Source of the DNA: Roseateles asaccharophilus
GTDB taxonomy: Bacteria > Pseudomonadota > Gammaproteobacteria > Burkholderiales > Burkholderiaceae_C
DNA: 32,000 nt
Direction of reading: 5' to 3'
Assembly: GCF_031458115.1 (NCBI RefSeq)
Contig: NZ_JAVDXV010000006.1
Coordinates: 382,276-414,275 of the forward strand
Shown: piece after piece, positions 3,827-25,443 of the stretch
How the letters are laid out: the number at the start of each line of letters is the position of its first letter
How positions within the stretch are numbered: position 1 is the stretch's first letter
Made by a program: the position numbers and the translations under genes
The notes under the pieces: generated by a model
Told to the model about the DNA's origin: nothing
Database searches by the model: none
Seen by the model: the letters and a program-made list of their open reading frames with translations, nothing else

Positions 3827-3833
3827 GACCGCG

Positions 3834-4316: not shown

Positions 4317-4333
4317 ATCAAGGAGACCCACTC

Positions 4334-4648: not shown

Positions 4649-4719
4649 GCCCGGCGGGCGCCTCGCTTCGTCGTACCCTGGCGGCTGTCGCACCGCGAGG
4701 TCAACGCAAGGACGCGCCC

Positions 4720-4947: not shown

Positions 4948-4962
4948 ACGCAGGCCCCAACG

Positions 4963-4988
4963 AAAAAGCCCGCACGAGGCGGGCTTTC
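4963..4988. terminator. Bidirectional rho-independent terminator
   Basis: AAAAA-GCCCGC-ACGAG-GCGGGC-TTT hairpin between the convergent 75-aa ORF and tRNA-Ser. Confidence 0.7.
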
Positions 4989-5013
4989 AAGACCTTGGGT
5001 CGAAACAAGGATT

Positions 5014-5104
<91 letters not shown>

Positions 5105-5168
5105 TGAATTCGGATTCGGCTAGAGCGAAGCCTCGCATTGTAGCCGGATTTTTCGACTCCGCCAGAAA

Positions 5169-6473
<1,305 letters not shown>

Positions 6474-7516: not shown

Positions 7517-7956
7517 AACACCCCGATCACTTGCACCTCGAAGCTGACCGGCTGGCCCGCGAGAGGGTGGTTGAAGTCGAACAGCACCGCCTCGTCCCCC
7601 AGCTCGCGCACGATGCCGGCATAGCCGCCCTGCCCGTCCGGACCGGGGAACTGCACGACATCGCCGACGTTGTAGACCTCGTCCGGGTCACCCAGCTGGC
7701 GCAGCAGCGTCAGCTTCACGCGCTGCAGCAGCTCGGGGTTGCGCTCGCCGAAGGCTTCGCCGGGCGCCAGCGTGAAACGCTCGTGCGCGCCCTCGGGCAG
7801 GCCGATCAGGCGCGCCTCGATGGCCGGCGACAGCTGGCCGGTGCCCAGGGACAGCGTGGCGGGCTTGTCGTCGAAGGTGTTGACGATGTCGGCACCGTCC
7901 GGGCCCGAGAGCCGGTAATGCAGAGTCAGGAAGGACCCGGCCTGGATGGGGTTCAT
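7513..7956 (-). CDS. fkpB: FKBP-type peptidyl-prolyl cis-trans isomerase
   Basis: 147 aa with LHYRLS...[18 protein letters not shown], typical of SlpA/FkpB. The position upstream of ispH matches the known fkpB-ispH arrangement. Confidence 0.8.
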
Positions 7957-7996
7957 GCGAGAGAAGAAGACGCTTGGCTAGACTGGCGCCGATTTT

Positions 7997-8441
7997 ATGT
8001 CGCTGACCCATCTGCCCCCCGACGCCCGTCCGCGCGAGAAACTGCTCGCCCGCGGCCCACAGGCGCTGGCGGAGCCGAGCTGCTGGCGTTGCTGCTGCGC
8101 ACGGGGCTCAAGGGCATGCCCGTGCTGCAGCTGGCGCAGAGCCTGCTGGACCGCTTCGACGGCTGGGCCGGGCTGCTGGCGGCCAGCGTGCAAGACCTCG
8201 GCAAGGTCAAGGGTCTGGGGCCTGCCAAGCGGGCGGAGATCGCCGCCGTGCTGGAGATTGCGCGGCGCTCGCTGAACCAGCAGCTGGCCGAGAAGCCGGC
8301 AATGAACGACAGCGACACGGTGAAGACTTATCTGCGCCTGCACCTGGGCGGGCTGGGACACGAGGTGTTCGCGGTGCTGTTCCTGGATTCGCAGCTCAAG
8401 CTCATCGCGATGGAGACGCTGTTCCAGGGCACGCTGGCATC
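7997..8441 (+). pseudogene. radC: radC (RadC/YicR JAB-domain family) 5' fragment, interrupted by the prophage and also frameshifted near 8068-8072
   Basis: Frame 2 gives MSLTHLPPDARPREKLLARGPQALA. Frame 1 continues ..AELLALLLRTGLKG...EVFAVLFLDSQLKLIAMETLFQGTLAS. The homology stops at 8441. Confidence 0.85.
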
Positions 8442-8464
8442 GATCAGCGTGCTGTATTTGCGGA
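8442..8464. repeat. Left terminal inverted repeat (attL, phage-derived P' arm)
   Basis: GATCAGCGTGCTGTATTTGCGGA is the reverse complement of 20680-20702 with one mismatch. It is preceded by TC (8440-8441). Confidence 0.8.
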
Positions 8465-8498
8465 AATCGTGGCCTCCGCTCCGTGCGGCGTTACGGAG

Positions 8499-8529
8499 AA
8501 TTATGTGAATCTACATAATTATGTGAATC
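8499..8529 (+). repeat. Tandem direct repeat AATTATGTGAATC x2 (18-bp register) in an AT-rich patch
   Basis: Exact 13-mers at 8499-8511 and 8517-8529. Confidence 0.8.
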
Positions 8530-8544
8530 AGCATAACGCCTCGT

Positions 8545-8783
8545 AATGACGCACTGAGCGGCCCGCGGCAGGCGACAGCCCGCAGGGCAGTGACTCGCGG
8601 CCGCAGGCCGCTCCCCGCCGGTACGGCAGTGACTCTGATTGCGGCCGCTCAGCCTTTGCCGGAGGCAATGACTCTCAGCCCGCCGCAGGCGGGCTGCCAG
8701 GAATCATCCAGTGACTCGCCCCGCCGGCCAGGCGCCGCCGGAGGCGTGACTCTCGAAAACGCCCTTCCCTGCAGGTCGTTTTC
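8545..8783 (+). repeat. Periodic array of (G/A)TGACTC cores, each followed by a GC-rich hairpin (putative ori/packaging/iteron region)
   Basis: Cores at 8590, 8629, 8668, 8711 and 8746 (spacings 39, 39, 43, 35), plus a degenerate ATGACGC at 8546. Hairpins include 8597-8611, 8676-8696 and 8755-8783. Confidence 0.75.
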
Positions 8784-8809
8784 CACCCCTTCGATATCAG
8801 CGCCCCGCG

Positions 8810-8820
8810 CGCTATACAGG
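8810..8820 (+). promoter_or_regulatory. CGCTATACAGG motif, copy 1 (candidate phage promoter element upstream of the g5p operon)
   Basis: Same motif at 12141, 14911 and 16691, each upstream of a plus-strand phage gene or operon. Confidence 0.35.
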
Positions 8821-8955
8821 TTCAAGGGGGCCTTGAAAACAACAACAAGGTTCTGGGGCGCACCTTCCCCACTGTGAAGGTCGCCGGCGCGGCTCCAGCT
8901 CGCCCCCGGCCTACGCCGCAACTTCAACAACAACCGCTATTCCAAGGGGGAAATC

Positions 8956-9195
8956 ATGCTCAAAGTCGTCGTCTATCAAGCCCGCACCGCTCGTTCTGAA
9001 AAGACCGGTAAGGACTACGTCAGTCAGACCGTCGAAATCGTTCAGTCGCCTGATCGGCCGAACGTCACGATGCGTCGCTTCGCTAAGTCTGAAGCTGAGG
9101 CGCTCAAGCCCGGGCAGTACACCTGCAAAGTGTCCTTCTTCAACAAAGGACTTGACCTGTCGCAGTCGTTCTACGACTTCCAGCCTGCGAAGTAA
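8956..9195 (+). CDS. ssDNA-binding protein, Ff g5p-like
   Basis: 79 aa with AAGGGGG RBS. It starts MLKV.. and ends ..PGQYTCKVSFFNKG...FQPAK, paralleling M13 g5p as I recall it (MIKV...PGLYTVHLSSFKVG...LVPAK). Confidence 0.7.
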   Translation: MLKVVVYQARTARSEKTGKDYVSQTVEIVQSPDRPNVTMRRFAKSEAEALKPGQYTCKVSFFNKGLDLSQSFYDFQPAK

Positions 9196-9197
9196 GC

Positions 9198-9455
9198 ATG
9201 CCCGCCGGCTCGCTCGAGAACGTGATCGTCTGCCGGCCTTCTGCCACGCCAGCCGCTCCCTGCGGCGCCGGCGAGGCCCCGACGGTCCTTCAGGCGTATG
9301 TTCTCGCGCCCTCCAGCTCTTCGTTCGTCGACGCCGCTGCAGGCCCCTACGACTACGCCACGGGCGCCGCCTATTGGTCCGCAGCCTTCGTCTTCACCGT
9401 GTCGTTGTACTTGTGCACCCGAGTCATCGGCACCATCGTCAACATGGTTCGCTAA
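9198..9455 (+). CDS. Small membrane protein, unknown function
   Basis: ATG lies 2 nt after the g5p-like stop. There is a single C-terminal hydrophobic helix (AAYWSAAFVFTVSLYLCTRVIGTIV). Confidence 0.5.
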   Translation: MPAGSLENVIVCRPSATPAAPCGAGEAPTVLQAYVLAPSSSSFVDAAAGPYDYATGAAYWSAAFVFTVSLYLCTRVIGTIVNMVR

Positions 9456-9524
9456 CGCCGCTGGACGCATCCAGCAACCGCCGCGGGTCGGACACCCGCA
9501 CGCTTCAATAAGGAGAACAACAAC

Positions 9525-9740
9525 ATGAAGCTGAACCGTACCGCCGCGCTCGTCGCTGCATCCGTACTGGCCGCACCGGCCGCCTTTGCTGCCGGCCCTA
9601 GCGCTGGTGACCTGTCCAACTTGACGCCCGACGGCGCAACGATCATGACCGCGATTGGCGCCGTCGCCCTCGTGCTCATCGGCATCAACCTGGGCCTCAA
9701 GGGCTTCCGCATCGTCCAGTCCCTGGTCGGCAAGCGCTGA
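9525..9740 (+). CDS. Major coat protein, g8p-like
   Basis: AAGGAG RBS. Signal peptide ends in AFA. The mature ~48 aa has an acidic N-terminus, a hydrophobic core (IMTAIGAVALVLIGINLGL) and a basic C-terminus (KGFRIVQSLVGKR). Confidence 0.8.
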   Translation: MKLNRTAALVAASVLAAPAAFAAGPSAGDLSNLTPDGATIMTAIGAVALVLIGINLGLKGFRIVQSLVGKR

Positions 9741-9748
9741 TAGCGCAG

Positions 9749-9776
9749 AAGGGGCGGCTAACCCCGCCCCTTTCTC
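9749..9776 (+). terminator. Rho-independent terminator/attenuator after the coat gene
   Basis: GGGGCGG-CTAACC-CCGCCCC followed by TTTCTC. This is the typical position after an inovirus g8. Confidence 0.65.
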
Positions 9777-9792
9777 ATCAAGGGGGCCTTTT

Positions 9793-9882
9793 ATGACGAT
9801 CAACGAGCTCTGGTACCTGACGCTGTTCGTGCACGGCGTCATCTGCGCTTGCGCAGTCATCGCTGGCTTGCGGGGTCGTTGA
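9793..9882 (+). CDS. 29-aa hydrophobic protein, g7p/g9p-like minor coat candidate
   Basis: AAGGGGG RBS 6 nt upstream of ATG 9793. MTINELWYLTLFVHGVICACAVIAGLRGR. The stop lies 1 nt before the g3p-like start. Confidence 0.5.
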   Translation: MTINELWYLTLFVHGVICACAVIAGLRGR

Positions 9883-9883
9883 C

Positions 9884-11563
9884 ATGCGCAAGCTGCTCAT
9901 CGCTCTTCTAGCGTTCTCTGTCATCTTCTTTGCTGTTGAGCGCGTACGCGCACAGGCACTACCCTCTTCACCGTTCTCGATCACCGCTAGCGACGCGCTC
10001 ACACTTGCCCGCCAGTCATGGGGAAGTGCATCGCTCATCGTCGGTGGCGGCACCGCCGTCGCAACTACGCTAGCTACCGCTGCCGGCGGCTTGTTCGGTA
10101 TCACGCCTATCGGCTGGGCGGGCATTGGTCTCGTTCTGCTCGCTACAGTGTTGATGACAAGCGACGCCTCTGGCAACTCAATCGCTGTTGTCGTCTCTAC
10201 GCAAGACATCGACGCGTCGCCCAATCCAGACCTTGCTTCGGGCGGTCAGACAACCTCTGGCGTCAGCAACTACTACGCGCTTGCGCCGGTAACGGGCGGC
10301 ATCGTCAAATATATCTCTAGCTCTAGTTGGTCGGCAGTCGGCTCAGATATATTGTCAGAGCCCGCACTACGACTGCGCGCGTATATCGCAACGATGTTCG
10401 CCGTGCCTAACAGTTGGCTGGTCAATAGCATCACCCAGGTCGGCAATACATATGTTGCCAGCAACGGCGGCGATACAACTAATATTGCGTTGGGTCGCTG
10501 CCCGTCTACCTCTTCAGGTTGTGTCGCACTTATATTTACTGCGCCCGTCGGGACTACCAAAGCTGAGTTTGAGTCAGTAATACCGGCCCTGCCGCCGTTC
10601 GCTGCCGCAGCTTGGACGATTCGGCCTAGTGGCGGAGCTCGCCCCTATTTCGCCATCGCAGTTCCTCTGGTTCTCGTCAACGAGATTATCAACTGCGACC
10701 CTTCGACGAGTTACTACGAATACTCTACAGCCAGCTGCATTCTGCTAAAGCCTACAACTACTGAGCCGCTTTCCAACGGTATGTGCCGAGTTAGCTGGTC
10801 TACGGATGGCTGCCCGGTATTCAACCGGCAAGACCCGGACTGCGCTTCAGCAGCCATCACTTTGTCTTGCGGTAGTGCGTCAGTCGCGCCATCGGTCACT
10901 GTTCTTGATCGAGCCACGGGTCAGACAGTTACTACCTCGCGCCCTGCTGTCGCTAGCCAAGGCCAACCGGGCTCTGTAACTGTCAAAGAGCGTACTCCCA
11001 ACGCAGCAAATGGCACTACTGTTGAGCGCTTGACTACAACGCAGTACCAAGCCGCCCCGGCGGGTCAGCCGAAGCCTGCGCCCGTCACCAACGGCGCTAA
11101 CCAGTCGACGTTGCCGGGCACTGGCGCTAACACCGGCAGCACGCCTGTCGCGCAGGTATCTGTGAGCAACTGGCCCTCGGTCGTAAACGTTCAAGGCACG
11201 GTCACGTGCACGAACTGCTCGACCGCTCAACAGCCCGTCAATATCAACGTGCCCGACCGCTTCAAGATTGACGGCGAAGTTCCCGCTGACGCGACCGGCC
11301 TGCCTACGCCGCCTGAGGCCGCCCCGCCAGCCGGCTTCATCACGAAGCTCAAAGAACGCCTTGCCGGCTTCGCAAACATCGAGCTGCCGCCGCACACAGC
11401 CACGTGCCCGCGCCTGGACATCAGCTGGCACGCATGGGGCGTCAATCTCGACTTGTCTAACAACACGATGTGCGCGTTTCTCGAAGAGCACCGCACGCTC
11501 TTCCAGGGCCTCATGCACTTCGCTTACATCGCCACCGCGATCATCATCGTCTTGGGAGCCTGA
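9884..11563 (+). CDS. Adsorption/minor coat protein, g3p-like
   Basis: 559 aa with a signal peptide, paired Cys residues, Ser/Thr/Pro/Gly-rich linkers and a C-terminal membrane anchor (FAYIATAIIIVLGA). Position matches g3. Confidence 0.7.
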   Translation: MRKLLIALLAFSVIFFAVERVRAQALPSSPFSITASDALTLARQSWGSASLIVGGGTAVATTLATAAGGLFGITPIGWAGIGLVLLATVLMTSDASGNSIAVVVSTQDIDASPNPDLASGGQTTSGVSNYYALAPVTGGIVKYISSSSWSAVGSDILSEPALRLRAYIATMFAVPNSWLVNSITQVGNTYVASNGGDTTNIALGRCPSTSSGCVALIFTAPVGTTKAEFESVIPALPPFAAAAWTIRPSGGARPYFAIAVPLVLVNEIINCDPSTSYYEYSTASCILLKPTTTEPLSNGMCRVSWSTDGCPVFNRQDPDCASAAITLSCGSASVAPSVTVLDRATGQTVTTSRPAVASQGQPGSVTVKERTPNAANGTTVERLTTTQYQAAPAGQPKPAPVTNGANQSTLPGTGANTGSTPVAQVSVSNWPSVVNVQGTVTCTNCSTAQQPVNINVPDRFKIDGEVPADATGLPTPPEAAPPAGFITKLKERLAGFANIELPPHTATCPRLDISWHAWGVNLDLSNNTMCAFLEEHRTLFQGLMHFAYIATAIIIVLGA

Positions 11564-11566
11564 CGC

Positions 11567-11863
11567 ATGTACGCAGCACTTCTCGCCGTCCTGGGCCGCG
11601 TTTTTGCGTGGGTCATGGGCGCCGGCACGCTCAAATGGGCCGTTGGAGCATTCTTGCTCTTCGGCGTCACGATCCTCGTCGACATCCTGCTCGACCTGCT
11701 TCCCACTTGGTTCGACCCAGCCCAGCTCGTCGGCGCGACCTCCGTCTTCACGCCCTCGATCTGGTACTTCCTGGACTACTTCGCTTTCCAGACCGGGCTC
11801 TCGATGATGTTTGCCGCGTACGCAGTGCGTTTCTTGATTCGTCGTCTCCCGGTCATCGGCTAA
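11567..11863 (+). CDS. Integral membrane minor coat protein, g6p-like
   Basis: 98 aa, multi-helix hydrophobic, immediately after the g3p-like gene. Confidence 0.6.
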   Translation: MYAALLAVLGRVFAWVMGAGTLKWAVGAFLLFGVTILVDILLDLLPTWFDPAQLVGATSVFTPSIWYFLDYFAFQTGLSMMFAAYAVRFLIRRLPVIG

Positions 11864-11897
11864 GAAGCAGTGATCCCCTCTGGGGACGCCTAAACGG

Positions 11898-12140
11898 CTA
11901 ATCCGGCTTCGTCAGCTCAGCGCTGTGTACTCGCACCGCGTGCGAACCGCTCACTTGACACGTTAGTTTGTCGCCGACTCGCAGATCGCGCCAGTCCACG
12001 CCTTCCACACTCTTCCCTATGCTGAGCTGCAGCCCGCCTTCTGACTCAGCTCTTGCTATCTCGAGCTCTGCGACGACTGCCGTCACTGTCGCCGTGACAG
12101 TCTGCTGTTCGTAGTTCATGTGCTGATGTTGCCTGCGCAT
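11898..12140 (-). CDS. Doubtful reverse-strand 80-aa ORF in the g6-g1 gap
   Basis: It is the only ORF in a 303-bp plus-strand gap. There is no convincing RBS at either ATG (12140 or 12119), and it uses rare codons. Confidence 0.3.
   Translation of the reverse strand: MRRQHQHMNYEQQTVTATVTAVVAELEIARAESEGGLQLSIGKSVEGVDWRDLRVGDKLTCQVSGSHAVRVHSAELTKPD
12082..12098. promoter_or_regulatory. Inverted repeat GTCAC-N7-GTGAC
   Basis: GTCACTGTCGCCGTGAC, about 45 bp upstream of CGCTATACGG motif copy 2. Confidence 0.35.
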
Positions 12141-12150
12141 CGCTATACGG
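12141..12150 (+). promoter_or_regulatory. CGCTATACGG motif, copy 2 (upstream of zot/g1p)
   Basis: CGCTATACGGTCAAAAGGGGG parallels CGCTATACAGGTTCAAGGGGG at 8810-8830. Confidence 0.35.
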
Positions 12151-12166
12151 TCAAAAGGGGGACCGC

Positions 12167-13261
12167 ATGGCTATTCATGCAATCACAGGCGTTATGGGCT
12201 CTGGCAAGAGCTACGAAGCCGTTTCAGAGAAGATCGTTCCAGCGCTTCGAGACGAGGCCGCTCGTCGCGTAGTCACGAACATCGAAGGCTTGTCTGTGCC
12301 AGCTATCGCTGCGTACATCAACAAGCCTGAGAGCGAGGTCGAAGCACGCATCGTTCGAATCAGCTACGACCGCGTCAGCGAACCTGGCTTCTGGTACGAC
12401 CCTGAGCACGGCTCGGGGTCCGAAACCGTTGTCCAGCCCGGCGACCTGGTCGTACTCGACGAGGTCTGGCGCTATTTCAACCGTGGCGACAAACTGCCCG
12501 AGGATGCAATGCGCTTCTTCCGCATGCACCGACACTACGTGAGCGAGCAATCGGGTCTCACCTGCGACGTTGTGCTCATCAACCAGAGCTTTCGCGGTAT
12601 ACACCAGGACATTCGCGACGTAGTCGAGTTGCAGTTCCAATGCCGCAAGCTCAAAGCCCTCGGACGGCCTCAGAACTACCAAGTGCTCTTGCTGGAGGGC
12701 GGCGAGCGCAAGCCCTCGCACGACTACATTCGCACTTACTCGAAGAGGGTCTTCCCGCTATACAGCAGCTACGCCGGCGGCCAGGGCAAAGAGGCTGTCG
12801 ACAAGCGGCAGAGCGTCTTCAACACGCCCTTCTTCAAGGTCGTTCTGCCGCTGTTCGCGGTCCTCATGGTCTTCGGCGTCTACAAGACGTACAGCTACTT
12901 CGCCGACATGGGCAAGCCGGCTGACGGCGCAGCGCTCGTAACCCCATCAGCTGCTGCGTCATCGCCTTCGGGCCTGCCGACGCCGCCGTCAGCTGGTGCG
13001 GCTCCTGCGCCTGCGCAGTCAGCTTTCAGCACTGCGTCTGGCTCCGCGGCCGATTGGCGCCTCGTCGCACGCTACAGCGTCGGTGGCTTGCCTGTTGTCG
13101 TCATGGTCAACGCCAGTGGCCAGTACCGAACTGTGACGAGCGGCAGCTACACGCAGGGCGCGTCCACTGACGTCTCAGTACAGATTCCGCTCGATCCGTC
13201 TGATCGCGCTACGCCTTGGTCTGGCCCTGCTCCTGCATCGACCAAGGGGGCCGCGCGATGA
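12167..13261 (+). CDS. Zot/g1p-family assembly ATPase
   Basis: N-terminal Walker A GVMGSGKS, DE Walker B (VVLDEVW), a central TM helix (VVLPLFAVLMVFGVY) and a periplasmic C-terminal part. Confidence 0.85.
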   Translation: MAIHAITGVMGSGKSYEAVSEKIVPALRDEAARRVVTNIEGLSVPAIAAYINKPESEVEARIVRISYDRVSEPGFWYDPEHGSGSETVVQPGDLVVLDEVWRYFNRGDKLPEDAMRFFRMHRHYVSEQSGLTCDVVLINQSFRGIHQDIRDVVELQFQCRKLKALGRPQNYQVLLLEGGERKPSHDYIRTYSKRVFPLYSSYAGGQGKEAVDKRQSVFNTPFFKVVLPLFAVLMVFGVYKTYSYFADMGKPADGAALVTPSAAASSPSGLPTPPSAGAAPAPAQSAFSTASGSAADWRLVARYSVGGLPVVVMVNASGQYRTVTSGSYTQGASTDVSVQIPLDPSDRATPWSGPAPASTKGAAR

Positions 13262-14610
13262 ACCGCAAGATCGCCCTCATCGGCGGCTTCCTCGTTGTGA
13301 AGAAGATCGTCGTCATCGCGGTGCTGGCGATGCTCGTCGGGTCGAGTGAAGCCCAGCCGGCGCTCAAGCTCCCGCCGCCTCCGGCGCCGGTGCCTGCCTC
13401 CGGCTTTCAGACGTTCGGCACTGGTCTACCCCTTGCCGAGTTCTTGAAGATCGCTCTAGGCGAGCTCTCTGGCCGCCCCTACGTTCTCGCTCCGGAGGTG
13501 GCTGCTTCGTCTCAGCTTGTTGCTGCAGACCTGACTAAGTCGAAACTCAAAGACCCGCTGCCGCTCGTCCGGGCCGTCATTGAGCCGCTTGGCCTCGAAA
13601 TCCGAGACCTCGGCGGCGTTCTGCTCGTCGACAAGCGCCGCACTGAGGCATCGAAGAAGAGTCCAGGTGACACGTTCACCTACCGCCCTCGGCATCGCTC
13701 TGTCAACAGCCTTTCGACGTACTTCAATATGTTCCCCGAGCTCGCTTTCAGCTACTCGGGCGGCCTCGCTGTCCGCGCCCAGACCGTCTCCAGCTCCGAC
13801 TCCACCGAGCCCGGCAAGGCTCTGCAGCCGACCATGAGTAGCGGCGCCACCACTTTTAGCGCGCAGGACAAAGACCCGAGCTTTCTCGTCGTCGCCGGCG
13901 ACGCCGCAGAGATTAGTCGTTTCAAGACCTTGATCGTTGAGTTGGATGTGCCTGTTCCCCAGGTGCTCGTCAAGGCCTATGTGTTTGAAGTCCGGACTAC
14001 AGACGCTCGCGATGGCGGTGTGAAGCTCGTCGCTGATCTGCTTGGCGGCCGCGTCGGCTTCAACCTCGGCGGCGCGTCCAGTTCTACCACGCCGGATGCT
14101 CTACGACTCACTCTTCCCAACGTCAGTCTTGCTGTGTCTGCGCTGGCTGCGGACAGCAGAGTGCGCCTCGTCAGCTCGCCGGTTCTCAGAGTTGATGACA
14201 GCACTACCGCTAGCGCTACTGTGGGCACCTCTACGCCCACTCTGGGTGCTATCGTCAGTCAGAACGGCTCGACCCAGCAGAGCGTGTCATATCAAGAGGC
14301 CGGCGTTTTGCTGTCTGTTAGCGCGCGAGTCCTTGAAGCGAGCATCCGTCTTACCATCTCGCAAGAGCTGTCTAGCTTCGTCAAAACGGACACCGGGCTC
14401 TCGAACACTCCGACTAAGCTCCGCCGCGCTTTCAAATCTGACGTTGTCGCCCGTGACGGCGAAGCTCTTCTGCTCGGGGGCCTGACAGAAGCTCAAACGT
14501 CTGATGCCAAGCAAACCAGCTTCTTCGGCTTCGGCTCAGCCTCTAAGTCGACTTCAAGCTCTGAAGTCGTCGTGCTGTTGACTGCTACTCGTCTCGATCA
14601 GCAGCAGTGA
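13258..14610 (+). CDS. Secretin, g4p-like
   Basis: ATG 13258 overlaps the zot stop as ATGA. Signal/TM N-terminus and a C-terminal secretin-type domain (VLVKAYVFEV...RLVSSPVLRV...YQEAGVLLSV...ALLLGGL). Confidence 0.85.
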   Translation: MNRKIALIGGFLVVKKIVVIAVLAMLVGSSEAQPALKLPPPPAPVPASGFQTFGTGLPLAEFLKIALGELSGRPYVLAPEVAASSQLVAADLTKSKLKDPLPLVRAVIEPLGLEIRDLGGVLLVDKRRTEASKKSPGDTFTYRPRHRSVNSLSTYFNMFPELAFSYSGGLAVRAQTVSSSDSTEPGKALQPTMSSGATTFSAQDKDPSFLVVAGDAAEISRFKTLIVELDVPVPQVLVKAYVFEVRTTDARDGGVKLVADLLGGRVGFNLGGASSSTTPDALRLTLPNVSLAVSALAADSRVRLVSSPVLRVDDSTTASATVGTSTPTLGAIVSQNGSTQQSVSYQEAGVLLSVSARVLEASIRLTISQELSSFVKTDTGLSNTPTKLRRAFKSDVVARDGEALLLGGLTEAQTSDAKQTSFFGFGSASKSTSSSEVVVLLTATRLDQQQ

Positions 14611-14866
14611 GTGAGTCGATCCACATCTGCCATTCCTCATAAAACACACACTCCGTGCCGTCTTCGAGAAGCAGCAAAGCTCGCCTACTTCGCGCGAATT
14701 GAACGCATTTGTCTCTAACTTCTTCACCCATATCAGAGAGCACTACGTACCGAGTGCCACATGGCGTTGCGTGTACCGGTGTGAATCTCTTCTTCGACGC
14801 CACACAGCCTCCAAGCGTAAATATATGTAACAAGCCCGGGTCAGCCAAAAACGCCCACTGAATCAA
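14585..14866 (-). CDS. Orphan hypothetical protein (AT-rich cargo)
   Basis: 93-aa ORF convergent with and overlapping the secretin 3' end by 26 nt. No recognisable motif, and the start is uncertain. Confidence 0.4.
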   Translation of the reverse strand: MIQWAFLADPGLLHIFTLGGCVASKKRFTPVHATPCGTRYVVLSDMGEEVRDKCVQFARSRRALLLLEDGTECVFYEEWQMWIDSLTAADRDE

Positions 14867-14889
14867 GGCAGTTCTTCTAGCGCCTCCAA

Positions 14890-14905
14890 GTCACGATTTC
14901 GTGAC
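14890..14905. promoter_or_regulatory. Palindrome GTCACGA-TT-TCGTGAC (operator candidate)
   Basis: 7-bp perfect arms, 5 bp upstream of CGCTATACAGG copy 3, in a divergent intergenic region. Confidence 0.45.
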
Positions 14906-14910
14906 CTCGA

Positions 14911-14921
14911 CGCTATACAGG
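14911..14921 (+). promoter_or_regulatory. CGCTATACAGG motif, copy 3
   Basis: Identical 11-mer to 8810-8820. It lies upstream of the ORF starting at 14972. Confidence 0.35.
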
Positions 14922-14971
14922 TATGTACGGGCTGCGCGTTGCAGCCCCACCCAACCCTGAAAGGCGCTTCC

Positions 14972-15415
14972 ATGAACTTCGAATACTTTGACGACGGTTG
15001 CCATCACAATCTCGGCGACATCAATACAAATGGATATGTTTTCGTCGCATCTCAAGATGAAAACATTTCGTCTAGTGAGCTTGAATCTGCTGCATATGAA
15101 GCAGACGCGCGTCGCTTCTGCGCTGATTTGAAGACAATTCGTCGCATCAGCATGCTACCTGTGACTTTTCTTACGGGGCACCATGTCGTAGCTTGCATTC
15201 GAGTTACTACAGCGTCTCGGACGTATTCGCTCTACACCAACGATTTTGGTGACAGCCTGCTTGATGAGTCGCACTACACATTGTTCTTCAAACGCAATTT
15301 CAGTCTCTTTCGCTACGATCTTCAGACTCCTCAAGGCCGGGCCGCTGCTCGTGAATATGTTCGTCGCAAGTTGAAGTTTTTGGCACAGCACGGCAAGCCT
15401 TTTGACGGTTATTGA
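14972..15415 (+). CDS. Orphan hypothetical protein (AT-rich cargo)
   Basis: ATG 14972 within ORF 14939..15415 (the track start is TTG). 147 aa (MNFEYFDDGCHHNLGD...) with no recognisable motif. Confidence 0.5.
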   Translation: MNFEYFDDGCHHNLGDINTNGYVFVASQDENISSSELESAAYEADARRFCADLKTIRRISMLPVTFLTGHHVVACIRVTTASRTYSLYTNDFGDSLLDESHYTLFFKRNFSLFRYDLQTPQGRAAAREYVRRKLKFLAQHGKPFDGY

Positions 15416-15528
15416 GTACGCGCGGCGGTCGGCGGACAGCGAGCGAGGAGCGGACGGACACACATGCCTCGCCCGCACCGCAGCGAGGGTCCGTCGCCCG
15501 CCGCGACTCTTCAAAAACTCCAGTCCGG

Positions 15529-15711
15529 CTAGGCCGATTTCGCGCCCGTCAGTTTTGTAATTGCGTTCCTATACTGAATTGGAAGCGTGGTCACACTAGG
15601 GTACACATCGGCGGGCACTGGGGAGTGCCCGTCGTCCTTTCCGAATCTTTCTTCCACCTCGGCCGGCGTCAATCTGACGAACGGCCTCTTTTTCGCGTCA
15701 ATTTCGGTCAT
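15529..15711 (-). CDS. Small hypothetical protein, last gene of the reverse-strand operon
   Basis: 60 aa. Its ATG overlaps the upstream stop as ATGA (15708-15711). KKRPFVRLTPAEVEERF could be a ribbon-helix-helix, which is speculative. Confidence 0.45.
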   Translation of the reverse strand: MTEIDAKKRPFVRLTPAEVEERFGKDDGHSPVPADVYPSVTTLPIQYRNAITKLTGAKSA

Positions 15712-16088
15712 TCTTGATCTTCTTGATGCTCGCCCGCGCCCCGGCGCGGGCCCTGGTCCGGGTTTGCTTTCTTCGCTATCACTAGGTCGCCGACGACGTC
15801 AAACTCGATCTGCTGTCCTGGCCGCAGGTCCATAGCTCTACGTATCGCTGCGGGTATCGTTATTAAGTTCCGCCTGTTCATGGTCGAGTGCCATTGCATA
15901 CTCTGCTTCGCTCGGTCGACTATCGTCTCGACGCGAGGAACAAGCTCAGACTTCAGCGCTTCTGCGATCCAGCGCACTTCGTGCTCAGACGGGTCGTGAA
16001 TTCGAATCTGCGCCACGATCTGCTGCACGAGCTCTGACAGCACTCTGTTGCGCTCAAACTGAATCATTTCTTCGTCACTCGGGATCAT
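15708..16088 (-). CDS. Protein with a C-terminal AbrB/SpoVT/MazE-type DNA-binding domain (candidate phage regulator or antitoxin)
   Basis: NLITIPAAIRRAMDLRPGQQIEFDVVGDLVIAKK fits the looped-hinge-helix pattern. The likely start is ATG 16088 (MIPSDEE..). The track ORF extends to 16130. Confidence 0.55.
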   Translation of the reverse strand: MIPSDEEMIQFERNRVLSELVQQIVAQIRIHDPSEHEVRWIAEALKSELVPRVETIVDRAKQSMQWHSTMNRRNLITIPAAIRRAMDLRPGQQIEFDVVGDLVIAKKANPDQGPRRGAGEHQEDQE

Positions 16089-16434
16089 TTTTGATCCCAA
16101 AAGCTCGGTACGCGGCTTCTCTAGACACAATGTGCTTGTTCTCGGGCGCTGACGCTGCTGCGATCACGCGCAGCGCACCTTCCGCAGTCTTGAACCGCTC
16201 TTCTGTCGTGCGGATGAGCCATCGCACGTCTGCTCTCGTGAGCGCCCAGCACTTCTCGTTCGACTGCCGCATCAGCGGCCGCGCCAGGTATGCGACTTTG
16301 AATCCAGCACTGTGCGCCCGCCTGCGTGTTGCCACGCTTACAAGCTGATCCGCGAGGTCGTTGAGCTTCTCGAAGCGCAAGAACATCTGCCCTTCGTTGT
16401 CGAAGTCCGTCATATCCGCACAGTCTTGGTGCAT
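16075..16434 (-). CDS. Hypothetical protein, first gene of the reverse-strand regulatory operon
   Basis: 119-aa ORF divergent from rep, overlapping the next gene by 14 nt. An alternative start is at 16413. No motif recognised. Confidence 0.5.
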   Translation of the reverse strand: MHQDCADMTDFDNEGQMFLRFEKLNDLADQLVSVATRRRAHSAGFKVAYLARPLMRQSNEKCWALTRADVRWLIRTTEERFKTAEGALRVIAAASAPENKHIVSREAAYRAFGIKNDPE

Positions 16435-16636
16435 TTCAATAGCTTGCCGCTATCGAAAAATCGACGGTTTCGCGCCTCCCGGCTGCATCGAGTTTTTGCA
16501 ATCCTCACTACGTCGGACAGCAGCCTGAGGCTGCATGACTCTACTCTAACGTCGGACGGCATGGGGAGCCTATCTTCTCTCGCTTCAAAAACTCGATGCT
16601 AGACCGTCGCTCCTGAGTCGGCAAAAAGCGCATTTC

Positions 16637-16648
16637 TTGCTATAGCAA
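16637..16648. promoter_or_regulatory. Perfect 12-bp palindrome TTGCTATAGCAA
   Basis: Read directly, in the rep/regulator divergent intergenic region. Confidence 0.4.
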
Positions 16649-16667
16649 AAACCAATCGACTTTCGGG

Positions 16668-16680
16668 GTCAAGACTTGAC
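16668..16680. promoter_or_regulatory. Palindrome GTCAAG-A-CTTGAC overlapping a TTGACA hexamer
   Basis: 6-bp perfect arms, 10 bp upstream of CTATACGGG motif copy 4 (16691-16699). Confidence 0.4.
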
Positions 16681-16690
16681 ATCGCCGGAC

Positions 16691-16699
16691 CTATACGGG
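16691..16699 (+). promoter_or_regulatory. CTATACGGG motif, copy 4 (upstream of rep)
   Basis: Shares CTATAC(A/G)GG with copies at 8812, 12143 and 14913. Confidence 0.35.
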
Positions 16700-16792
16700 G
16701 TGTACCCCCACAACGGCCCCGCGAGGTAGATCACAGCGCACTGCGCAAATCGAGGACATGAGTCGGATAGGGCCATCAACCCAGCCCTCCCC

Positions 16793-18736
16793 ATGTCCGC
16801 TTCTACTGCCATCTCCCCGGCGGAGCTTCTCCACTCTGCAGAGCTCAACGCCGCTCCCGCACCTTCATCTGCCTTCGGCCCGCTGCCCCTCGCAAAGGCG
16901 CTGCAAGCCGGCCTTCTCGCTGCACGCGCAGAGTTCTGCGGCGACCTTCCAGCCCACCTTATTGGCGCCACTGCGCCGGAGCGCTACGACGCCGCTGCTG
17001 CGACGGCTGAGCGCTTTCAAATGCTTCTGGGAACGGCGAGTGACGATCACGCTCTGCTTGACCGCCTTGTTCAGCTTGCGCAGGCCGATCTGGGTGGCTT
17101 CGCTTGGCGCAGCTCGACCGTCGCGTCGGCGGTCACCTCGAAGTTGATCGAGCGGCACAAAGTGGAGCTCAAGTCTGTCGCGGCCGTCTTTGAGTTCGAT
17201 GCTTCTGTGGGCGAGCGTGTTCTAGCTATCGCCAACGCACACCTCGGCCGTCCTGTTCCCGGCGACTCGCTTCAAACGAAGGTCTCGCGCATACTCGACC
17301 GCAAGTTCTGGCTTCGGCACTACTCAAAGCTCGCCCGCCAGCGTGACGAGTTCTCCTTCATCAAGTCCGGCTTCGTTTCTGCGGCTGGCGAGAAGTACAT
17401 CAGCGACCGCGGTCTGTCACGCCACTCCGAAGCTCTGGCGGCACAGCAAGCGTGGCTCGAGTCGACCGTCCTCATCGACCACAGCGCAGCAGCTTCTACT
17501 GGCAAGTTCAAGTACATCAAGCTCGCTGACGCAGCGAAGCGCGCGGCGCACCGTGATGCAAGCCTGTGGGCGTTCCTCACCGGCATCGAGCAGCTCAGCA
17601 TCGAATCCAACCTCGAATGCGCGCTCGTCACCCTTACGGCGCCGTCATCCTTTCACGCCTGCCCCGGCACTCGCTCCAAGTTGTTCGACGGCGTCAGCAC
17701 ACCCCTCGACTCGCACAAGTACATCGCTAGCCGCTGGACGGCCTTCCAGCGCGATCTTGACAACGAAGGCCTCGCGGTCAGCGGTGTCCGCGCTACTGAA
17801 CCGCAGGGCGACGGCACATGCCATTGGCATGTCTGGCTGCACTATGCGCCCGACACTCTGCCGAGCATCCTCTCCCGCTTGGCTCACTACTTCCAAGGCG
17901 ACACCGCTCGCCGTGTCGAACCTGTAGTCGTTCGTCAGGTCGAAGCTGACTTGGCCGGCCGCAAGGTCAACAAGAAGACCGGTGAGCGCTTCAGTGAGTC
18001 GTTCAGCGTTCTGCGCGCCGGGGCGCTCGTTCAGCGTTCAACGAAGCCAGCTGCTCAGGTCGACTTCAGCGTCATCAATCGCTCGTACGCGTCCGGCGCT
18101 ACTTACATGGCCAAGTACACGGTCAAGTCGTTCGATCAGTCCGAGAACAGCAAGCGTGTCCACGCATGGCGCTGGACCTGGGGCGTACGCGGCTTCCAGC
18201 TCTTCGGGCTGCGCAACTGCCGCGGACTCTGGGATGAGCTCTACCGCGCCACTGAGCGCCCCTTCGATTCGCGCGCCGCTGCGCTGTGGGACGCTGTCCA
18301 CGCTGAGCCCGGCAAGCACACCCGCCAGGTCATCAACCCGCTTACTGGACTGCAGGAGGTTGAGCACTACGAGGGGGGCACCGCTGCATTCATTCGCCTT
18401 CAAGGCGGCCTCGCGGCTGCCGGTGGCGCTGCAGGCCTGCGCATCAAGATCACCTACGTGCCTGCTGAAGGACGCTATGGCGACTTCATGAAGCGCCGCC
18501 GCGGACTTCGCATCATGCTTGGCGACACGGTGCTCTACAGCTTCAAAACCCGCGAGCCGGGGCGCTGGGTCATGTCTGCCGAGGGACGCGTTGAGCAGAC
18601 CTTCAGCGCTCTGCGCCGCATCCCGTTCGTCGATGCGGCAGAGCTGATCGAGCTGACCTGCGCTGAGTTCAAAGCCCTCCTCGCCAGCTATGCGGCCGGC
18701 GTCGACCCGTTCACCGGCGAAATCCTCGACGCATAG
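16793..18736 (+). CDS. Rolling-circle replication initiator (HUH endonuclease)
   Basis: 647 aa. HUH-type motif GTCHWHVWLHY (HWH at 17822-17830) and tyrosine motif YMAKYTVK (Y..KY at 18104-18118). Confidence 0.75.
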   Translation: MSASTAISPAELLHSAELNAAPAPSSAFGPLPLAKALQAGLLAARAEFCGDLPAHLIGATAPERYDAAAATAERFQMLLGTASDDHALLDRLVQLAQADLGGFAWRSSTVASAVTSKLIERHKVELKSVAAVFEFDASVGERVLAIANAHLGRPVPGDSLQTKVSRILDRKFWLRHYSKLARQRDEFSFIKSGFVSAAGEKYISDRGLSRHSEALAAQQAWLESTVLIDHSAAASTGKFKYIKLADAAKRAAHRDASLWAFLTGIEQLSIESNLECALVTLTAPSSFHACPGTRSKLFDGVSTPLDSHKYIASRWTAFQRDLDNEGLAVSGVRATEPQGDGTCHWHVWLHYAPDTLPSILSRLAHYFQGDTARRVEPVVVRQVEADLAGRKVNKKTGERFSESFSVLRAGALVQRSTKPAAQVDFSVINRSYASGATYMAKYTVKSFDQSENSKRVHAWRWTWGVRGFQLFGLRNCRGLWDELYRATERPFDSRAAALWDAVHAEPGKHTRQVINPLTGLQEVEHYEGGTAAFIRLQGGLAAAGGAAGLRIKITYVPAEGRYGDFMKRRRGLRIMLGDTVLYSFKTREPGRWVMSAEGRVEQTFSALRRIPFVDAAELIELTCAEFKALLASYAAGVDPFTGEILDA

Positions 18737-18929
18737 CGCCTCGCAAGTTCGAATCCGCCTGATCCGCTCAGGCCCACACACCCCGCACCCGCGGGGCGCA
18801 GCCACTGGCGAGCCTCTGAAGTGTGATGGGATTCGAACCAACCCTCAGGTCTGAGCTTCGCCGATCCGCGCGGCGCTTCGCGCGGGCGACGCCTCGAAAC
18901 CGGCTTAACCGGGCCGGCAAGGCGCCTCA

Positions 18930-18953
18930 GGCGGGCCCCGTAGGGGTCCCGCC
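18930..18953. terminator. GC-rich hairpin between convergent rep and recombinase genes
   Basis: GGCGGGCCCC-GTA-GGGG(T)CCCGCC. There is no clear U-tract, so terminator function is uncertain. Confidence 0.35.
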
Positions 18954-18991
18954 CTTGGATAGATATGCGTAACTTTCTAACCCTGAATTTA

Positions 18992-20611
18992 CTAGGACTT
19001 TTTGAGGCTCGGCAGTTCAAGCTCACCTTTCAGGCTTGCAGCCCAGGCCGGCTGCGCGTCGCCCTGCGCTTTCACCCCGAGCGGTATCGTCAGCAGCTGC
19101 TGCGAGTTCTTGAACTGAACTGCGACTAGGTCATACGCCCAGAGCCAAATCACGTCCACGGCTCGTCGTAGTCTGTTGTTGCAGTCCGCGCGTAGACGCA
19201 TCGCATCGTCTGACGTCTCGAACAGCACTGCGATGACTTGCTCTGCGTAAGCCGTGTCAAATAGCGAGTTTGGGTTGACTGCCAGCTGCGCTTTGAGCTC
19301 TTCGATGACGTTCTCAAGCTGCTCACGTTCAGCGGTCAACCTGGCAATGTCTTGAAGTACCTCGGGCACGGCGCCCACGGCTCTGCTGACTGCTACGACG
19401 TTTGCTATTGCGGTCTTCACGTCAGCGAGCTTTGACTCAGCTACCGCAACTTCTTTCACCGCTGCGTCTTTGTCGTACCCCAGGCCCAGGTGCGCTCCCG
19501 CGTACGCACATATGTCTAAGATGACCTGCGCTTCGGTCTTCAGCGCTGACATCGTCTTGCACTTCGTAATCCCGGCCGCTTTTGAAGAGCAGATCAGCTG
19601 TGCCCTGCTCCAGCCGCGGTACTCGACTTTTCGCTGTATCGACGCGCCACAGTGCCCGCACCTGAGCAGTCCACTGAATACGTGAAAGTAGTTGCCATCG
19701 CGTTTTGGCGGCGCTGTTTTGCGCGTCTGGACTGACGATCTTGCGAGGTGCCAGAGGTCGTCACTTATCACCCGAGGGTAGTAATCCTTGATCGGTGGTC
19801 CTACTGCTACAGGCACGTCACTCTCAAGCTCTTTCAACACGTTCTTGCCTTTGAGCTTGTGCTGAGCCTCTCCCAAAACTGCCCTGTTCTTCAGGATGAT
19901 TTGCGGCATCCTCGAATGCCAGTGTTCTGTTGTCATCGAGGTCACGCGTGTAGGTACCGGCCAGCCTTCTGCGTTCGCTAGCTTCGCAATCGTAGGCCCG
20001 CCCATTCCGCGGCCAGCCGCTTCGAACACTTTTCTCACGGACTCAGCCAGCTCTTCGACAACTTCCCAGTCGCCTCCCGCTTGACTTCTTCTCAGCCACC
20101 CCGGAGCTGAGCCGAAGACCTTCTTGCCTTCTTCTCGTTTTCGCTTGAACGTCTCGCTTACACGCCCGCCCTTGCGAAAGCTCTCTTCGTGCGCTTGCGC
20201 GAACGCAAGCATCATGCCGATCAGAGCGGCGATGTTGTTCAGCGACTTCTTCGTGTAGATGTGCCCGTCGAGCAACGTGACGATGTTCACGTCTTTGCGC
20301 AGGATCGACTTGACCAGCGTGTCTGCATCGTCAATCTCTTCGCGACTGAGCCGGTCGAAGTGTTCAATCAGCAGATAACTGCCCTTCGGCACCCTGCCCT
20401 CTTCCACCTGCTCCAAGAACGCCGCGAGGTTGCCTTTCGTTCTGTGCTTGCCGGTGAAAGCACTCAAGCCGAGGTCCGCGACGCTCTCATCGAGCTTCAT
20501 GCCGTGCTGCGCGCACCACCGCTCTGCTGCATCGCCCTGTCGTTCTTCTGAGCGCCCTTTTGATTGTCTTGCCGACGAAAATCGAACGTAGCTGATGACC
20601 CGAGGCTTCAT
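18992..20611 (-). CDS. Large serine recombinase (integrase)
   Basis: Resolvase-type N-terminus ([12 protein letters not shown]...[11 protein letters not shown]), a recombinase domain, a Cys4 zinc-ribbon (CGHCG...C..K..C) and a coiled-coil C-terminus. ATG 20611 is preferred; the track start TTG 20623 is possible. Confidence 0.9.
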
Positions 20612-20679
20612 GTCGATAGTCAAATCCTTGTTCCGAAGATATGGAATTCTAGTGCAGATCAGCGTTCAATATCTTCGAA

Positions 20680-20702
20680 TCCGCAAATACAGCACGCTCA
20701 TC
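20680..20702. repeat. Right terminal inverted repeat (attR, phage-derived P arm)
   Basis: TCCGCAAATACAGCACGCTCATC followed by TC (20703-20704). It is the reverse complement of 8442-8464 with one mismatch. Confidence 0.8.
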
Positions 20703-20933
20703 TCCACGACCGTTCACCCGCGCGAGGTCGTCAAGCGCGCGCTGGCGCTGGGCGCGGGTGCCGCCATCCTGGCGCACAACCACCCCAGCGGCCACGCCGA
20801 GCCGTCGCGCGCCGACGAGTTGCTGACGAAACAGCTCAGCGACGCGCTGGCGCTGGTGGACGTGCGCGTGGTGGATCACCTCGTCGTGGGCGCCGGTGAT
20901 GTCGTTTCCTTTGCCGAGCGGGGTCTGCTGTGA
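20703..20933 (+). pseudogene. radC 3' fragment (JAB/MPN domain)
   Basis: ..[42 protein letters not shown]...[21 protein letters not shown] carries the canonical RadC C-terminal motifs HNHPSG and SFAE. Confidence 0.9.
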
Positions 20934-23639: not shown

Positions 23640-24376
23640 GGCGTCGTGTCCTGTTGCAGATCTGAATTCAAGGTAGCGAACAACATGCCCTTTTCTTCGG
23701 CGCTGACCAGGGAGTCGATCTGCGGCTCCAGGCAAGCGCGGTTGCGGCCCTCGGCCTTGGCACGGTAGAGCTGGCGGTCGGTGCGCTCCATCCACAGCAG
23801 CGGCGACGAGCGCACCCATTGCGGTGCGAACGCGCCACCCAGGCTGACCGTGACGCCCAGCATCTGGCCAGGAGAGACCTCGATGCTCAGCTCGGAGACG
23901 CGTTCGCGCACGCGCTCGGCGACAGCCAGTCCCACATGTGAGGCACAGTTGGGCAGGATGATGGCGAACTCCTCGCCGCCCACGCGGGCCACGAGGTCCA
24001 TGGGGCGCACGGTCTGTGCAACGGCCTGCGCGACGGCGCGTATGACCTGGTCCCCGGCGTTGTGGCCATGCGTGTCGTTGACGGCCTTGAAGTGGTCGAT
24101 GTCCAGCATCAGCAGCAAGGCGGCTTCGCCGGAACGCGCGACGCGGTCGACCTCGCGGGCCAGCGCCATCTCGAAGCTGCGACGGTTGACCATGCCGGTC
24201 AGCGCATCCTTGCTGGACAGATCGCACAGCGCGTCAATAACCGCCTGCAGCCAGGCAGTGCTGTGAGGCGCCTCGTCCGGAAGCAATGCCCCGGCCTGCT
24301 GCAGCAGTTGCAGGGCCTGGTCCAGAGCGAGCGCATGGGCTTCGATCGGGTGCGGGGCAGGCAAGGCGGGATCCAA
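23636..24376 (-). CDS. Diguanylate cyclase (GGDEF domain)
   Basis: 246 aa with RVGGEEFAIILP (GGEEF active site) and DIDHFKAVND. There is only a short N-terminal region. Confidence 0.85.
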   Translation of the reverse strand: MDPALPAPHPIEAHALALDQALQLLQQAGALLPDEAPHSTAWLQAVIDALCDLSSKDALTGMVNRRSFEMALAREVDRVARSGEAALLLMLDIDHFKAVNDTHGHNAGDQVIRAVAQAVAQTVRPMDLVARVGGEEFAIILPNCASHVGLAVAERVRERVSELSIEVSPGQMLGVTVSLGGAFAPQWVRSSPLLWMERTDRQLYRAKAEGRNRACLEPQIDSLVSAEEKGMLFATLNSDLQQDTTP

Positions 24377-25441: not shown

Positions 25442-25443
25442 CC

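Follow-up and report, generated by a model that had tools for sequence, protein, structure and literature searches.

The window analysed here, a stretch of 32,000 nt from the Roseateles asaccharophilus contig NZ_JAVDXV010000006.1, contains a compact block of genes that lies inside the host gene radC and is organized like a filamentous phage (inovirus). The block stands out by its base composition, with a continuous trough in GC content of 0.53–0.65 from approximately 8500 to 20500. This is 5–15 points lower than in the flanks, which have 0.67–0.68 on the left and 0.68–0.71 on the right (0.67–0.74 when the far left is taken together with the right flank), and points to a foreign origin. Its first and last bases are 8442 and 20702, located on either side of a TC dinucleotide at which the element would have crossed over with radC. 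The block is small, with 12,263 bp between the attachment (att) sites, and its structural genes are all on the plus strand, where they overlap or are separated by only 1–3 nt. The same locus is present in the Logan assembly L001 (window position = L001 position + 2166), and records of its Zot and recombinase proteins exist for R. asaccharophilus. In our view the block is very probably a temperate inovirus with a complete set of genes, integrated in radC by its own large serine integrase; ‘complete’ here means that all genes are present and the att sites are intact, and activity is predicted only. The features by which an inovirus and a large-serine-integrase system can be recognized in a sequence were all found, the g3 assignment aside. 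The initial annotation had described an AT-richer block of ~12.3 kb with these same ends as a complete inovirus-like prophage. The difference in composition was confirmed, both boundaries proved to be exact, all of the open reading frames (ORFs) that it listed were found at their coordinates, and profile searches returned matches to the Zot, secretin and Rep families.

The structural module is colinear with, and ~52–81% identical to, those of four metagenomic inovirus contigs from Logan (L086, L087, L089 and L090), among which the identities are 57–79% for Zot, 60–81% for the secretin and 52–63% for g6, with lower values for the g3-like protein (30–41%). The module begins with a gene for a 79-amino-acid (aa) protein (8956–9195, +), which had previously been called g5p-like from its position and has a weak match to phrog_2866 (E = 0.0026). 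An AlphaFold (AF2) model of this protein, for which six homologs served as input, has a predicted local distance difference test score (pLDDT) of 89 and an all-beta fold with six strands. Its best PDB matches in Foldseek were the single-stranded DNA-binding protein (SSB) of phage Pf3 (1PFS; template modelling (TM) score 0.72, probability 1.00) and the gene V protein of the Ff phages. On the strength of this model, the identification as a g5p-type single-stranded DNA (ssDNA)-binding protein stands. None of the PDB sequence searches made with the g5-like, coat and Rep proteins gave a meaningful match. The next gene encodes an 85-aa protein with a C-terminal membrane segment (9198–9455, +; phrog_3679, 1.7e-05), probably a small virion or membrane protein, which is conserved with 48–74% identity in L086, L087 and L090.

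The major coat protein precursor (71 aa; 9525–9740, +) was matched by phrog_2186 (3.9e-07) and phrog_6548 ‘major coat protein’ (3.3e-05), and by no Pfam coat family. A signal peptide, an acidic N-terminus, a hydrophobic core and a basic C-terminus can be read from its sequence. Directly after the coat gene, a hairpin at 9766–9787 followed by a T run forms an intrinsic terminator (9766–9795, +), the 3′ arm of which is also the AAGGGGG Shine-Dalgarno sequence of the following gene. The product of the latter is a 29-aa hydrophobic protein (9793–9882, +), a candidate for a small minor coat protein of the g7/g9 type; it is 65–86% identical in the four related contigs, and its gene was called in L087 and L089. 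The 559-aa protein encoded next (9884–11563, +) has an N-terminal signal peptide and a C-terminal membrane anchor and matches phrog_7187 through residues 371–559 (1.8e-10); by position and architecture it is a candidate g3p-like adsorption protein. It can be aligned over its whole length with its counterparts in L087 and L090 (30 and 35% identity), and over residues 278–559 only with those in L086 and L089 (34 and 41%), the L089 contig ending before the N-terminal part. It is the least conserved structural protein, which is expected of a protein involved in adsorption.

The remaining structural genes encode a 98-aa g6p-like minor coat protein (11567–11863, +; phrog_974, 2.2e-14, with Pfam DUF2523 below the cutoff), the Zot/pI assembly ATPase (364 aa; 12167–13261, +; Pfam Zot, 4.3e-25, above the cutoff; phrog_197, 2.7e-65), and a pIV-type secretin (450 aa; 13258–14610, +; Pfam Secretin, 7.5e-17; phrog_1012 ‘protein IV of M13’, 1.6e-73). 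The coupling between genes is tight, with gaps of 2 nt (9195/9198), 1 nt (9882/9884) and 3 nt (11563/11567) and an ATGA overlap at 13258–13261. All five copies of AAGGGGG in the 32-kb window are inside the island and on the plus strand, and four of them are located 5–7 nt before the ATG codons of the 79-aa, 29-aa, Zot and secretin genes; the number of copies alone is not significant (9 of 100 shuffled sequences reach five), and it is their placement that counts. The earlier calls of a small membrane protein at 9198, a g8p-like coat gene with its terminator, a g6p-like protein, Zot/g1p and an own g4p-like secretin, and of tight coupling with a reused Shine-Dalgarno sequence, are thus all borne out.

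The replication gene of the element encodes a rolling-circle Rep protein of the HUH superfamily (647 aa; 16793–18736, +), which belongs to the Phage_GPA family (Pfam Phage_GPA, 2.4e-29; phrog_91, 7.5e-44). Two motifs can be read from its sequence, HWHVW (HUH) and YMAKYTVK, with two tyrosines as in the phiX174 A protein. The former designation as an HUH Rep can therefore be refined, and the protein is assigned to the P2 gpA/phiX A type. It is 63% identical to the Rep of L087, and homology to the related Rep begins at codon 34. The Rep of the Logan gene caller comprises 571 aa and is too short, and the integrase was likewise truncated by the caller.

Between the secretin and rep genes, three ORFs of a putative regulatory module are located on the minus strand (15529–16413, gene calls from L001) and encode proteins of 60 aa (15529–15711), 126 aa (15708–16088) and 112 aa (16075–16413). 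The 126-aa protein contains an AbrB/SpoVT domain (Pfam MazE_antitoxin, 1.6e-07; TIGR01439 AbrB, 2.3e-07), and its N-terminal part is 44% identical to the product of a minus-strand gene that follows the secretin gene in L087. Repressors of inoviruses usually sit divergent from rep, and the position of the AbrB-type protein suggests that it is the likely repressor. Two additional ORFs have counterparts at equivalent places in L089, the closest relative: a small minus-strand ORF between the g6 and zot genes (11898–12119, 73–80 aa), which is 41% identical to a minus-strand gene of L089 and absent from L086, L087 and L090, and an ORF for a 158-aa accessory protein, p158 (14939–15415, +), which is 36% identical to its L089 counterpart and is preceded by CTATACAG. 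The 93-aa minus-strand ORF at 14585–14866 had no support of any kind and is probably not a gene. The minus-strand 73-, 60- and 112-aa ORFs and the 158- and 93-aa ORFs had no match in Pfam, PHROG, NCBIfam or PADLOC.

The 490-nt region upstream of g5 is non-coding and, as ssDNA, folds much better than shuffled sequences (z = −4.3). Five RTGACTC motifs, out of seven copies in the window, are clustered here within 163 bp (8586–8755, +), with a spacing of 35–43 nt and each beside a GC-rich hairpin of the CCGCAGGC type. In both L086 and L087, an equivalent array of motifs and hairpins is located in the non-coding region upstream of the ssb gene. This array is a candidate for the Rep-binding, origin or packaging region. 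A second motif, CTATACRG, occurs in five copies, all on the plus strand of the prophage, whereas 0.26 would be expected by chance. The first copy, CTATACAG, is at 8812–8819 (+), the others are at 12143, 12758, 14913 and 16691, and four of the five are located upstream of the ssb, zot, p158 and rep genes. GCTATAC is found at equivalent positions in L086, L087, L089 and L090, and CTATACRG probably serves as an operator or as the −10 element of promoters. In a scan with the sigma-70 consensus, the number of sites was not above chance, so we infer promoters from the conserved CTATACRG element. The best sigma-70-like site of the island (TTCACA-16-CATAAT, 10/12) is at 8500–8527 on the minus strand, within an 86-nt intergenic palindrome (8476–8561) that also contains two 18-nt direct repeats (AATTATGTGAATC...; 8499–8534). 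The circular order rep–recombinase–attP–non-coding region–g5 given by the initial annotation is correct, and it may be speculated that in the circular form this promoter-like site (8527→8500) points across attP towards int, in which case integration would uncouple int from it.

The recombinase gene (18992–20611, −) encodes a 539-aa protein with the three domains of large serine recombinases (LSRs), all above the Pfam cutoffs (Resolvase, 1.8e-19; Recombinase, PF07508, 2.7e-09; Zn_ribbon_recom, PF13408, 2.9e-06), and it also matches the integrase family phrog_95 (2.3e-62). The start codon is the ATG at 20611, as the N-terminus is conserved in homologs, and the catalytic motif YVRFSSARQ is conserved in 11 homologs. 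Judged by these domains, the protein is a large serine integrase, which makes the earlier designation as a recombinase more precise.

The two fragments of the target gene flank the element. The 5′ fragment of radC (8089–8441, +) comprises Pfam UPF0758_N and positions 2–50 of the RadC profile and ends at the crossover TC (8440–8441). Its frame continues for 22 codons into phage DNA to a stop at 8508, in agreement with the Logan gene call at 5923–6342 of L001, which corresponds to 8089–8508 of the window. The 3′ fragment (20703–20933, +) encodes the JAB domain and matches positions 43–121 of the RadC profile (2.4e-29). In all 17 of the closest Roseateles/Pelomonas-clade genomes the syntenic radC is uninterrupted and lacks the 12 kb, with the motif LFQG[ST]L[TSA][SHA]TTVHPREV, so that the empty site expected from the initial annotation is found in the relatives. 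Four possible crossover points were tried, with frame, native length of radC and symmetry of the inverted repeat as criteria. A crossover at the shared TCA (8444–8446/20698–20700) would give a perfect 19-1-19 palindromic attP and a radC three codons longer than in all 17 relatives; a crossover inside the 7-nt direct repeat GCACGCT would restore the native length, but it would be off-centre in the inverted repeat and thus unfit for the LSR mechanism; and one at CATC would cause a frameshift. The TC at 8440–8441 and 20703–20704 alone satisfies frame, length and symmetry, and it corresponds to the crossover codon of the relatives. When the sequences are joined at this dinucleotide, radC is in frame and has the length of the intact gene of the 17 relatives. 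The predicted junction of the restored gene is ...GCACGCTGGCA-TC-CACGACCGTTCAC..., with GCACGCTGGCATCCACGACCGTTCAC as the empty site. TC is present once per junction, and there is no target duplication. The predicted target is a Ser codon where the JAB domain of RadC begins, of which TC forms the first two bases. Of the 17 related species, nine have TCN as this codon, six have CAC and two have GCC.

Three further observations concern radC itself. The frame is open for ~185 codons (7531–8088) upstream of the called TTG start at 8089. The segment directly before the conserved AELLALLLRTG is unlike the usual RadC N-terminus. On the right side, an ORF at 20595–20933 (+) has its ATG within the phage, on the strand opposite to the 5′ end of int, and continues in frame through the junction into the JAB fragment; in principle, a chimeric C-terminal RadC could be expressed from the prophage.

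The att sites can be reconstructed to the base from these junctions. The right arm of the used attP, P′_out (GATCAGCGTGCTGTATTTGCGGA; 8442–8464, +), aligns in register with the corresponding arms of L083 and L086 and together with the TC at 8440–8441 forms attL. The left arm, P_out (TCCGCAAATACAGCACGCTCATC), together with the crossover TC forms attR (20680–20704, +) and matches the half-site consensus of the family in register at 14 of 19 specified positions, as read by eye. The used attP, TCCGCAAATACAGCACGCTCATC-TC-GATCAGCGTGCTGTATTTGCGGA, is 48 bp long, with 23-nt arms (20680–20702 and 8442–8464) that form an inverted repeat complementary at 22 of 23 positions around the non-palindromic TC. 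As reconstructed, it has the layout that is classic for sites of large serine integrases. The predicted attP junction of the circular form is ...CAGCACGCTCATC-TC-GATCAGCGTGCTG... (attP_out = CAGCACGCTCATCTCGATCAGCGTGCTG).

The prophage also contains a second, intact and unused attP-like site of 48 bp, attP_in (TCCGAAGATATGGAATTCTAGTG-CA-GATCAGCGTTCAATATCTTCGAA; 20632–20679, +). The outer (TC) site abuts attP_in head-to-tail with zero spacing, and P′_out and P′_in are identical at 17 of 23 positions, including the inner nine bases on the P′ side. Nine related LSR elements have one P arm each, 7–21 nt from the ATG of int, and the crossover dinucleotide is CA in every one of them, at the beginning of the same radC codon. 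The int-proximal arm of attP_in occupies the position of this single arm and is identical to the P arm of L083 at 20 of 23 positions. The inner CA site therefore appears to be ancestral, as used by the nine relatives. The compatibility of the att sites of serine integrases is decided by the central dinucleotide alone, and, given the TCN, CAC and GCC codon classes of radC, the outer site looks like an adaptation to a TC allele; it would match the derived TCN (Ser) codon in the radC of the present host. We tentatively suggest, as a possibility that falls well short of even odds, that two attP sites with different central dinucleotides, arranged head-to-tail, are a natural feature of the phage and serve one serine integrase. 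As a host-range device, such a CA/TC pair could give one phage access to two classes of radC alleles. Just as well, it could capture attP in the course of re-targeting through duplication and divergence, and the inner CA site may alternatively be a relic.

The arrangement could also be explained if the outer half-sites (8442–8464 and 20680–20702) were attL/attR scars of an earlier radC element, with the phage having arrived by homologous exchange and the inner CA site being its true attP. The inner site is indeed orthologous to the attP/P arm of the nine relatives and int-proximal as in these, and radC is a busy landing site for this LSR family. However, there is zero extra DNA between the outer half-sites and recognizable phage sequence, and the abutting of P_out on attP_in and the similarity of P′_out to P′_in are expected of one duplicated phage locus. 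Moreover, an attP that is intact inside the prophage cannot have mediated the insertion. Because this explanation needs two events where the tandem-site model needs one, and no extra DNA was left behind, we regard it as improbable. A 19-nt outer attP arm had no match in IMG/VR and seven matches in the JGI metagenomes; none of the seven had related proteins or a radC context, and these are therefore considered to be chance matches. An incomplete literature search, which is not proof of absence, returned no paper on natural tandem attP sites and none on inoviruses that use a large serine integrase to enter radC. Sets of orthogonal att sites have been engineered in synthetic biology (PMC3936721), and the dual attP, if true, would be their natural counterpart.

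The two halves of the element have different relatives. When the entire island was compared with 50,697 phage records by megablast, there was no match, and a single-protein Zot scan of IMG/VR found no relative. The best Zot of a deposited phage is <38% identical and the best integrase ≤33% identical, the latter nearly all from tailed phages or records of unstated type. The four metagenomic inovirus contigs share the structural module and differ from the prophage in other parts, and none of them is known from Roseateles radC. L087 has the Rep and the RTGACT-plus-hairpin array in common with the prophage, but between rep and the non-coding region, where the prophage has int, it carries an N6/N4 methyltransferase and a 351-aa gene (108–2101). 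L086 encodes an LSR with 47% identity and has a single attP of the CA type. L090 encodes an 863-aa protein (203–2794) in which a Phage_GPA Rep domain is joined to a UvrD-type helicase.

The closest integrases (56–69% identity) are instead found in non-phage radC islands of 10–20 kb from Comamonas and other Burkholderiales, which indicates that the integration module moves between replicons. Islands with this LSR family are L082 (Comamonas), L083/L084, L085, L091/L092, L093, L101 and L102/L103. Their cargo includes Eco57I, XhoI and BsuBI restriction-modification, Mrr, type ISP, SMC-like, Abi_C, RepC or D5-type replication and plasmid-type genes, without virion genes, and all of them have the CA crossover and one attP arm. 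They share with the prophage the crossover codon and the sequence family of the int-adjacent P arm. In L082, L085 and L091, a Phage_GPA Rep adjoins int, and the island Reps are 47–50% identical to that of the prophage. These loci constitute a family of small islands, defence-related or plasmid-like, that target radC, and the radC-specific integration module is, on this comparison, a cassette common to different small replicons. The occurrence of the closest integrases and Reps in elements that lack virion genes would also fit if the island were not a virus at all, but an integrative rolling-circle plasmid or genomic island with a chance secretin and Zot-like ATPase. This is very hard to reconcile with the full inovirus structural set (coat, g3-like, g6-like and 29-aa proteins and a g5p with the Pf3 SSB fold), the canonical arrangement of these genes, including the terminator behind the coat gene, and the colinearity with four metagenomic inovirus contigs, and we give it next to no weight.

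The Ff phages (M13/f1/fd, genus Inovirus) share with the prophage the order g5–small proteins–g8–g3–g6–g1–g4, in which the g3-like candidate takes the place of g3, a terminator after the coat gene, their own pIV secretin and pI/Zot ATPase, a structured non-coding region beside g5 and a rolling-circle HUH Rep. They are not temperate and lack an integrase, and their Rep (pII) is from a different family. In the prophage, in contrast to Ff, int, attP and the non-coding region come between rep and g5, while the interval from g4 to rep contains the minus-strand regulatory module. No sequence identity between the Ff phages and the island was detectable in the phage collection. The large serine integrases of tailed phages, such as phiC31, Bxb1 and those that insert into genes (Listeria A118 in comK and Bacillus SPbeta in spsM), use an attP of ~50 bp with inverted arms and a non-palindromic central dinucleotide and split the host gene without target duplication. 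The prophage integrase resembles these in domain architecture and att-site structure. It differs in its carrier, a 12-kb ssDNA filamentous phage, and in the presence of two tandem attP-type sites rather than one. By analogy, the structural half of the element would work like Ff and the integration half like A118 or SPbeta.

It is established that temperate inoviruses integrate by means of XerCD, transposases or recombinases of the tyrosine or serine type (PMC6813254, PMC4471427). One parallel is with phiRSM1/phiRSM3 of Ralstonia, which are betaproteobacterial temperate inoviruses with a phage-encoded serine recombinase, as is the prophage, and which have an int–attP unit in or beside the replication module and by a repressor gene (PMC4471427), a layout that the prophage, with its putative repressor, would share. 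The phiRSM Int is of the small resolvase/invertase type and its target is a 13-nt sequence of a tRNA-Ser gene (PMC4471427), whereas the prophage encodes a 539-aa LSR with Recombinase and zinc-ribbon domains and targets the protein-coding radC with a 2-nt crossover. A unit of the phiRSM type was therefore rejected as a description of the element, and the tRNA-Ser of the window (5014–5104) is not adjacent to it. The same applies to an XerCD/dif-dependent inovirus of the CTXphi type, which lacks a phage integrase and enters the chromosome at dif, as the element has its own integrase and LSR-type att sites inside radC.

In the proposed life cycle, the double-stranded replicative form would be inserted by its own large serine integrase, which would recombine the 48-bp attP with its TC centre with the matching TC in the Ser codon of radC and thereby split the gene. 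After excision, rolling-circle synthesis would be driven by the two-tyrosine HUH Rep, through nicking of an origin located in the structured non-coding DNA that precedes gene 5, and the g5p-like protein would coat the plus strand. The DNA would then be extruded by the Zot/pI ATPase together with the pIV secretin that the phage itself encodes and, during extrusion, would gain the mature coat protein of 49 residues along with the 29-aa, 85-aa, g3-like and g6-like minor proteins. The AbrB-type minus-strand protein, divergent from rep, would be the likely repressor. The gene identities and their order, the structure of the att sites, the empty sites in relatives and the kinship to other inoviruses that enter this scheme are observed. 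For the nicking site, regulation, excision and virion production, the scheme follows the biology of the families involved.

Several points weigh against the description of the element as a complete temperate inovirus. The prophage was found in one genome lineage only among the collections searched, and conservation cannot confirm that every gene is intact. The circular junction or a second copy was not found, with no matches in IMG/VR and only chance 19-mers in metagenomes. No recombination directionality factor is recognizable by sequence in the element, such factors being non-homologous between systems. Several accessory ORFs are without a homolog of known function in Pfam, PHROG, NCBIfam and PADLOC. 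The g3p role is proposed from position, architecture and a PHROG of unknown function, and for the origin there is a candidate region, in which the nick site is presumed. The start codon of Rep is uncertain, and the 647-aa ORF is essentially right judging from the homology that begins at codon 34. The first three of these points, together with the starts of int and rep that are ambiguous after truncation by the automated Logan caller, are also what would be expected of a decaying, non-inducible remnant, domesticated or stranded in radC, with ORFs that are intact only through recent insertion. Decay is at odds with the core genes, all of which are full length and colinear with four relatives, with the att halves, which keep their symmetry at 22 of 23 positions, and with the intact catalytic motifs of Rep and the integrase. 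Neither the Shine-Dalgarno sequences nor the terminator or the repeated regulatory motifs have been lost. We regard a remnant as unlikely, although it deserves more consideration than the other alternatives discussed above, and retain the gene-complete temperate inovirus as the description of the element.

The prophage adds a well-delimited, gene-complete temperate inovirus to a host genus, Roseateles, and a phage lineage that both lack a cultured or deposited representative. The base-precise attL, attR, attP and attB make excision and integration directly testable. A radC-specific LSR that is common to filamentous phages and small defence- or plasmid-type islands of Burkholderiales helps to annotate such islands and to mine integrases with known natural targets, and the CA/TC attP pair is a small but concrete lead on natural shifts in the target specificity of serine integrases. 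The understanding of inoviruses is unchanged, as inoviruses with serine recombinases, like secretins encoded by phages, had been known before.

Outside the prophage, the upstream host context (approximately 2450–6460, from the gene calls of L001) consists of a copper-resistance cluster with multicopper oxidase, cupredoxin and CusF genes, followed by tRNA-Ser(CGA) at 5014–5104, serS, ispH and an FKBP gene. The tRNA-Ser was the only match in an Rfam scan. The GC content dips to 0.63–0.65 around 4000–5500 upstream of the prophage, and a further, shallower dip to 0.64–0.66 is located downstream of it at 24000–26500.

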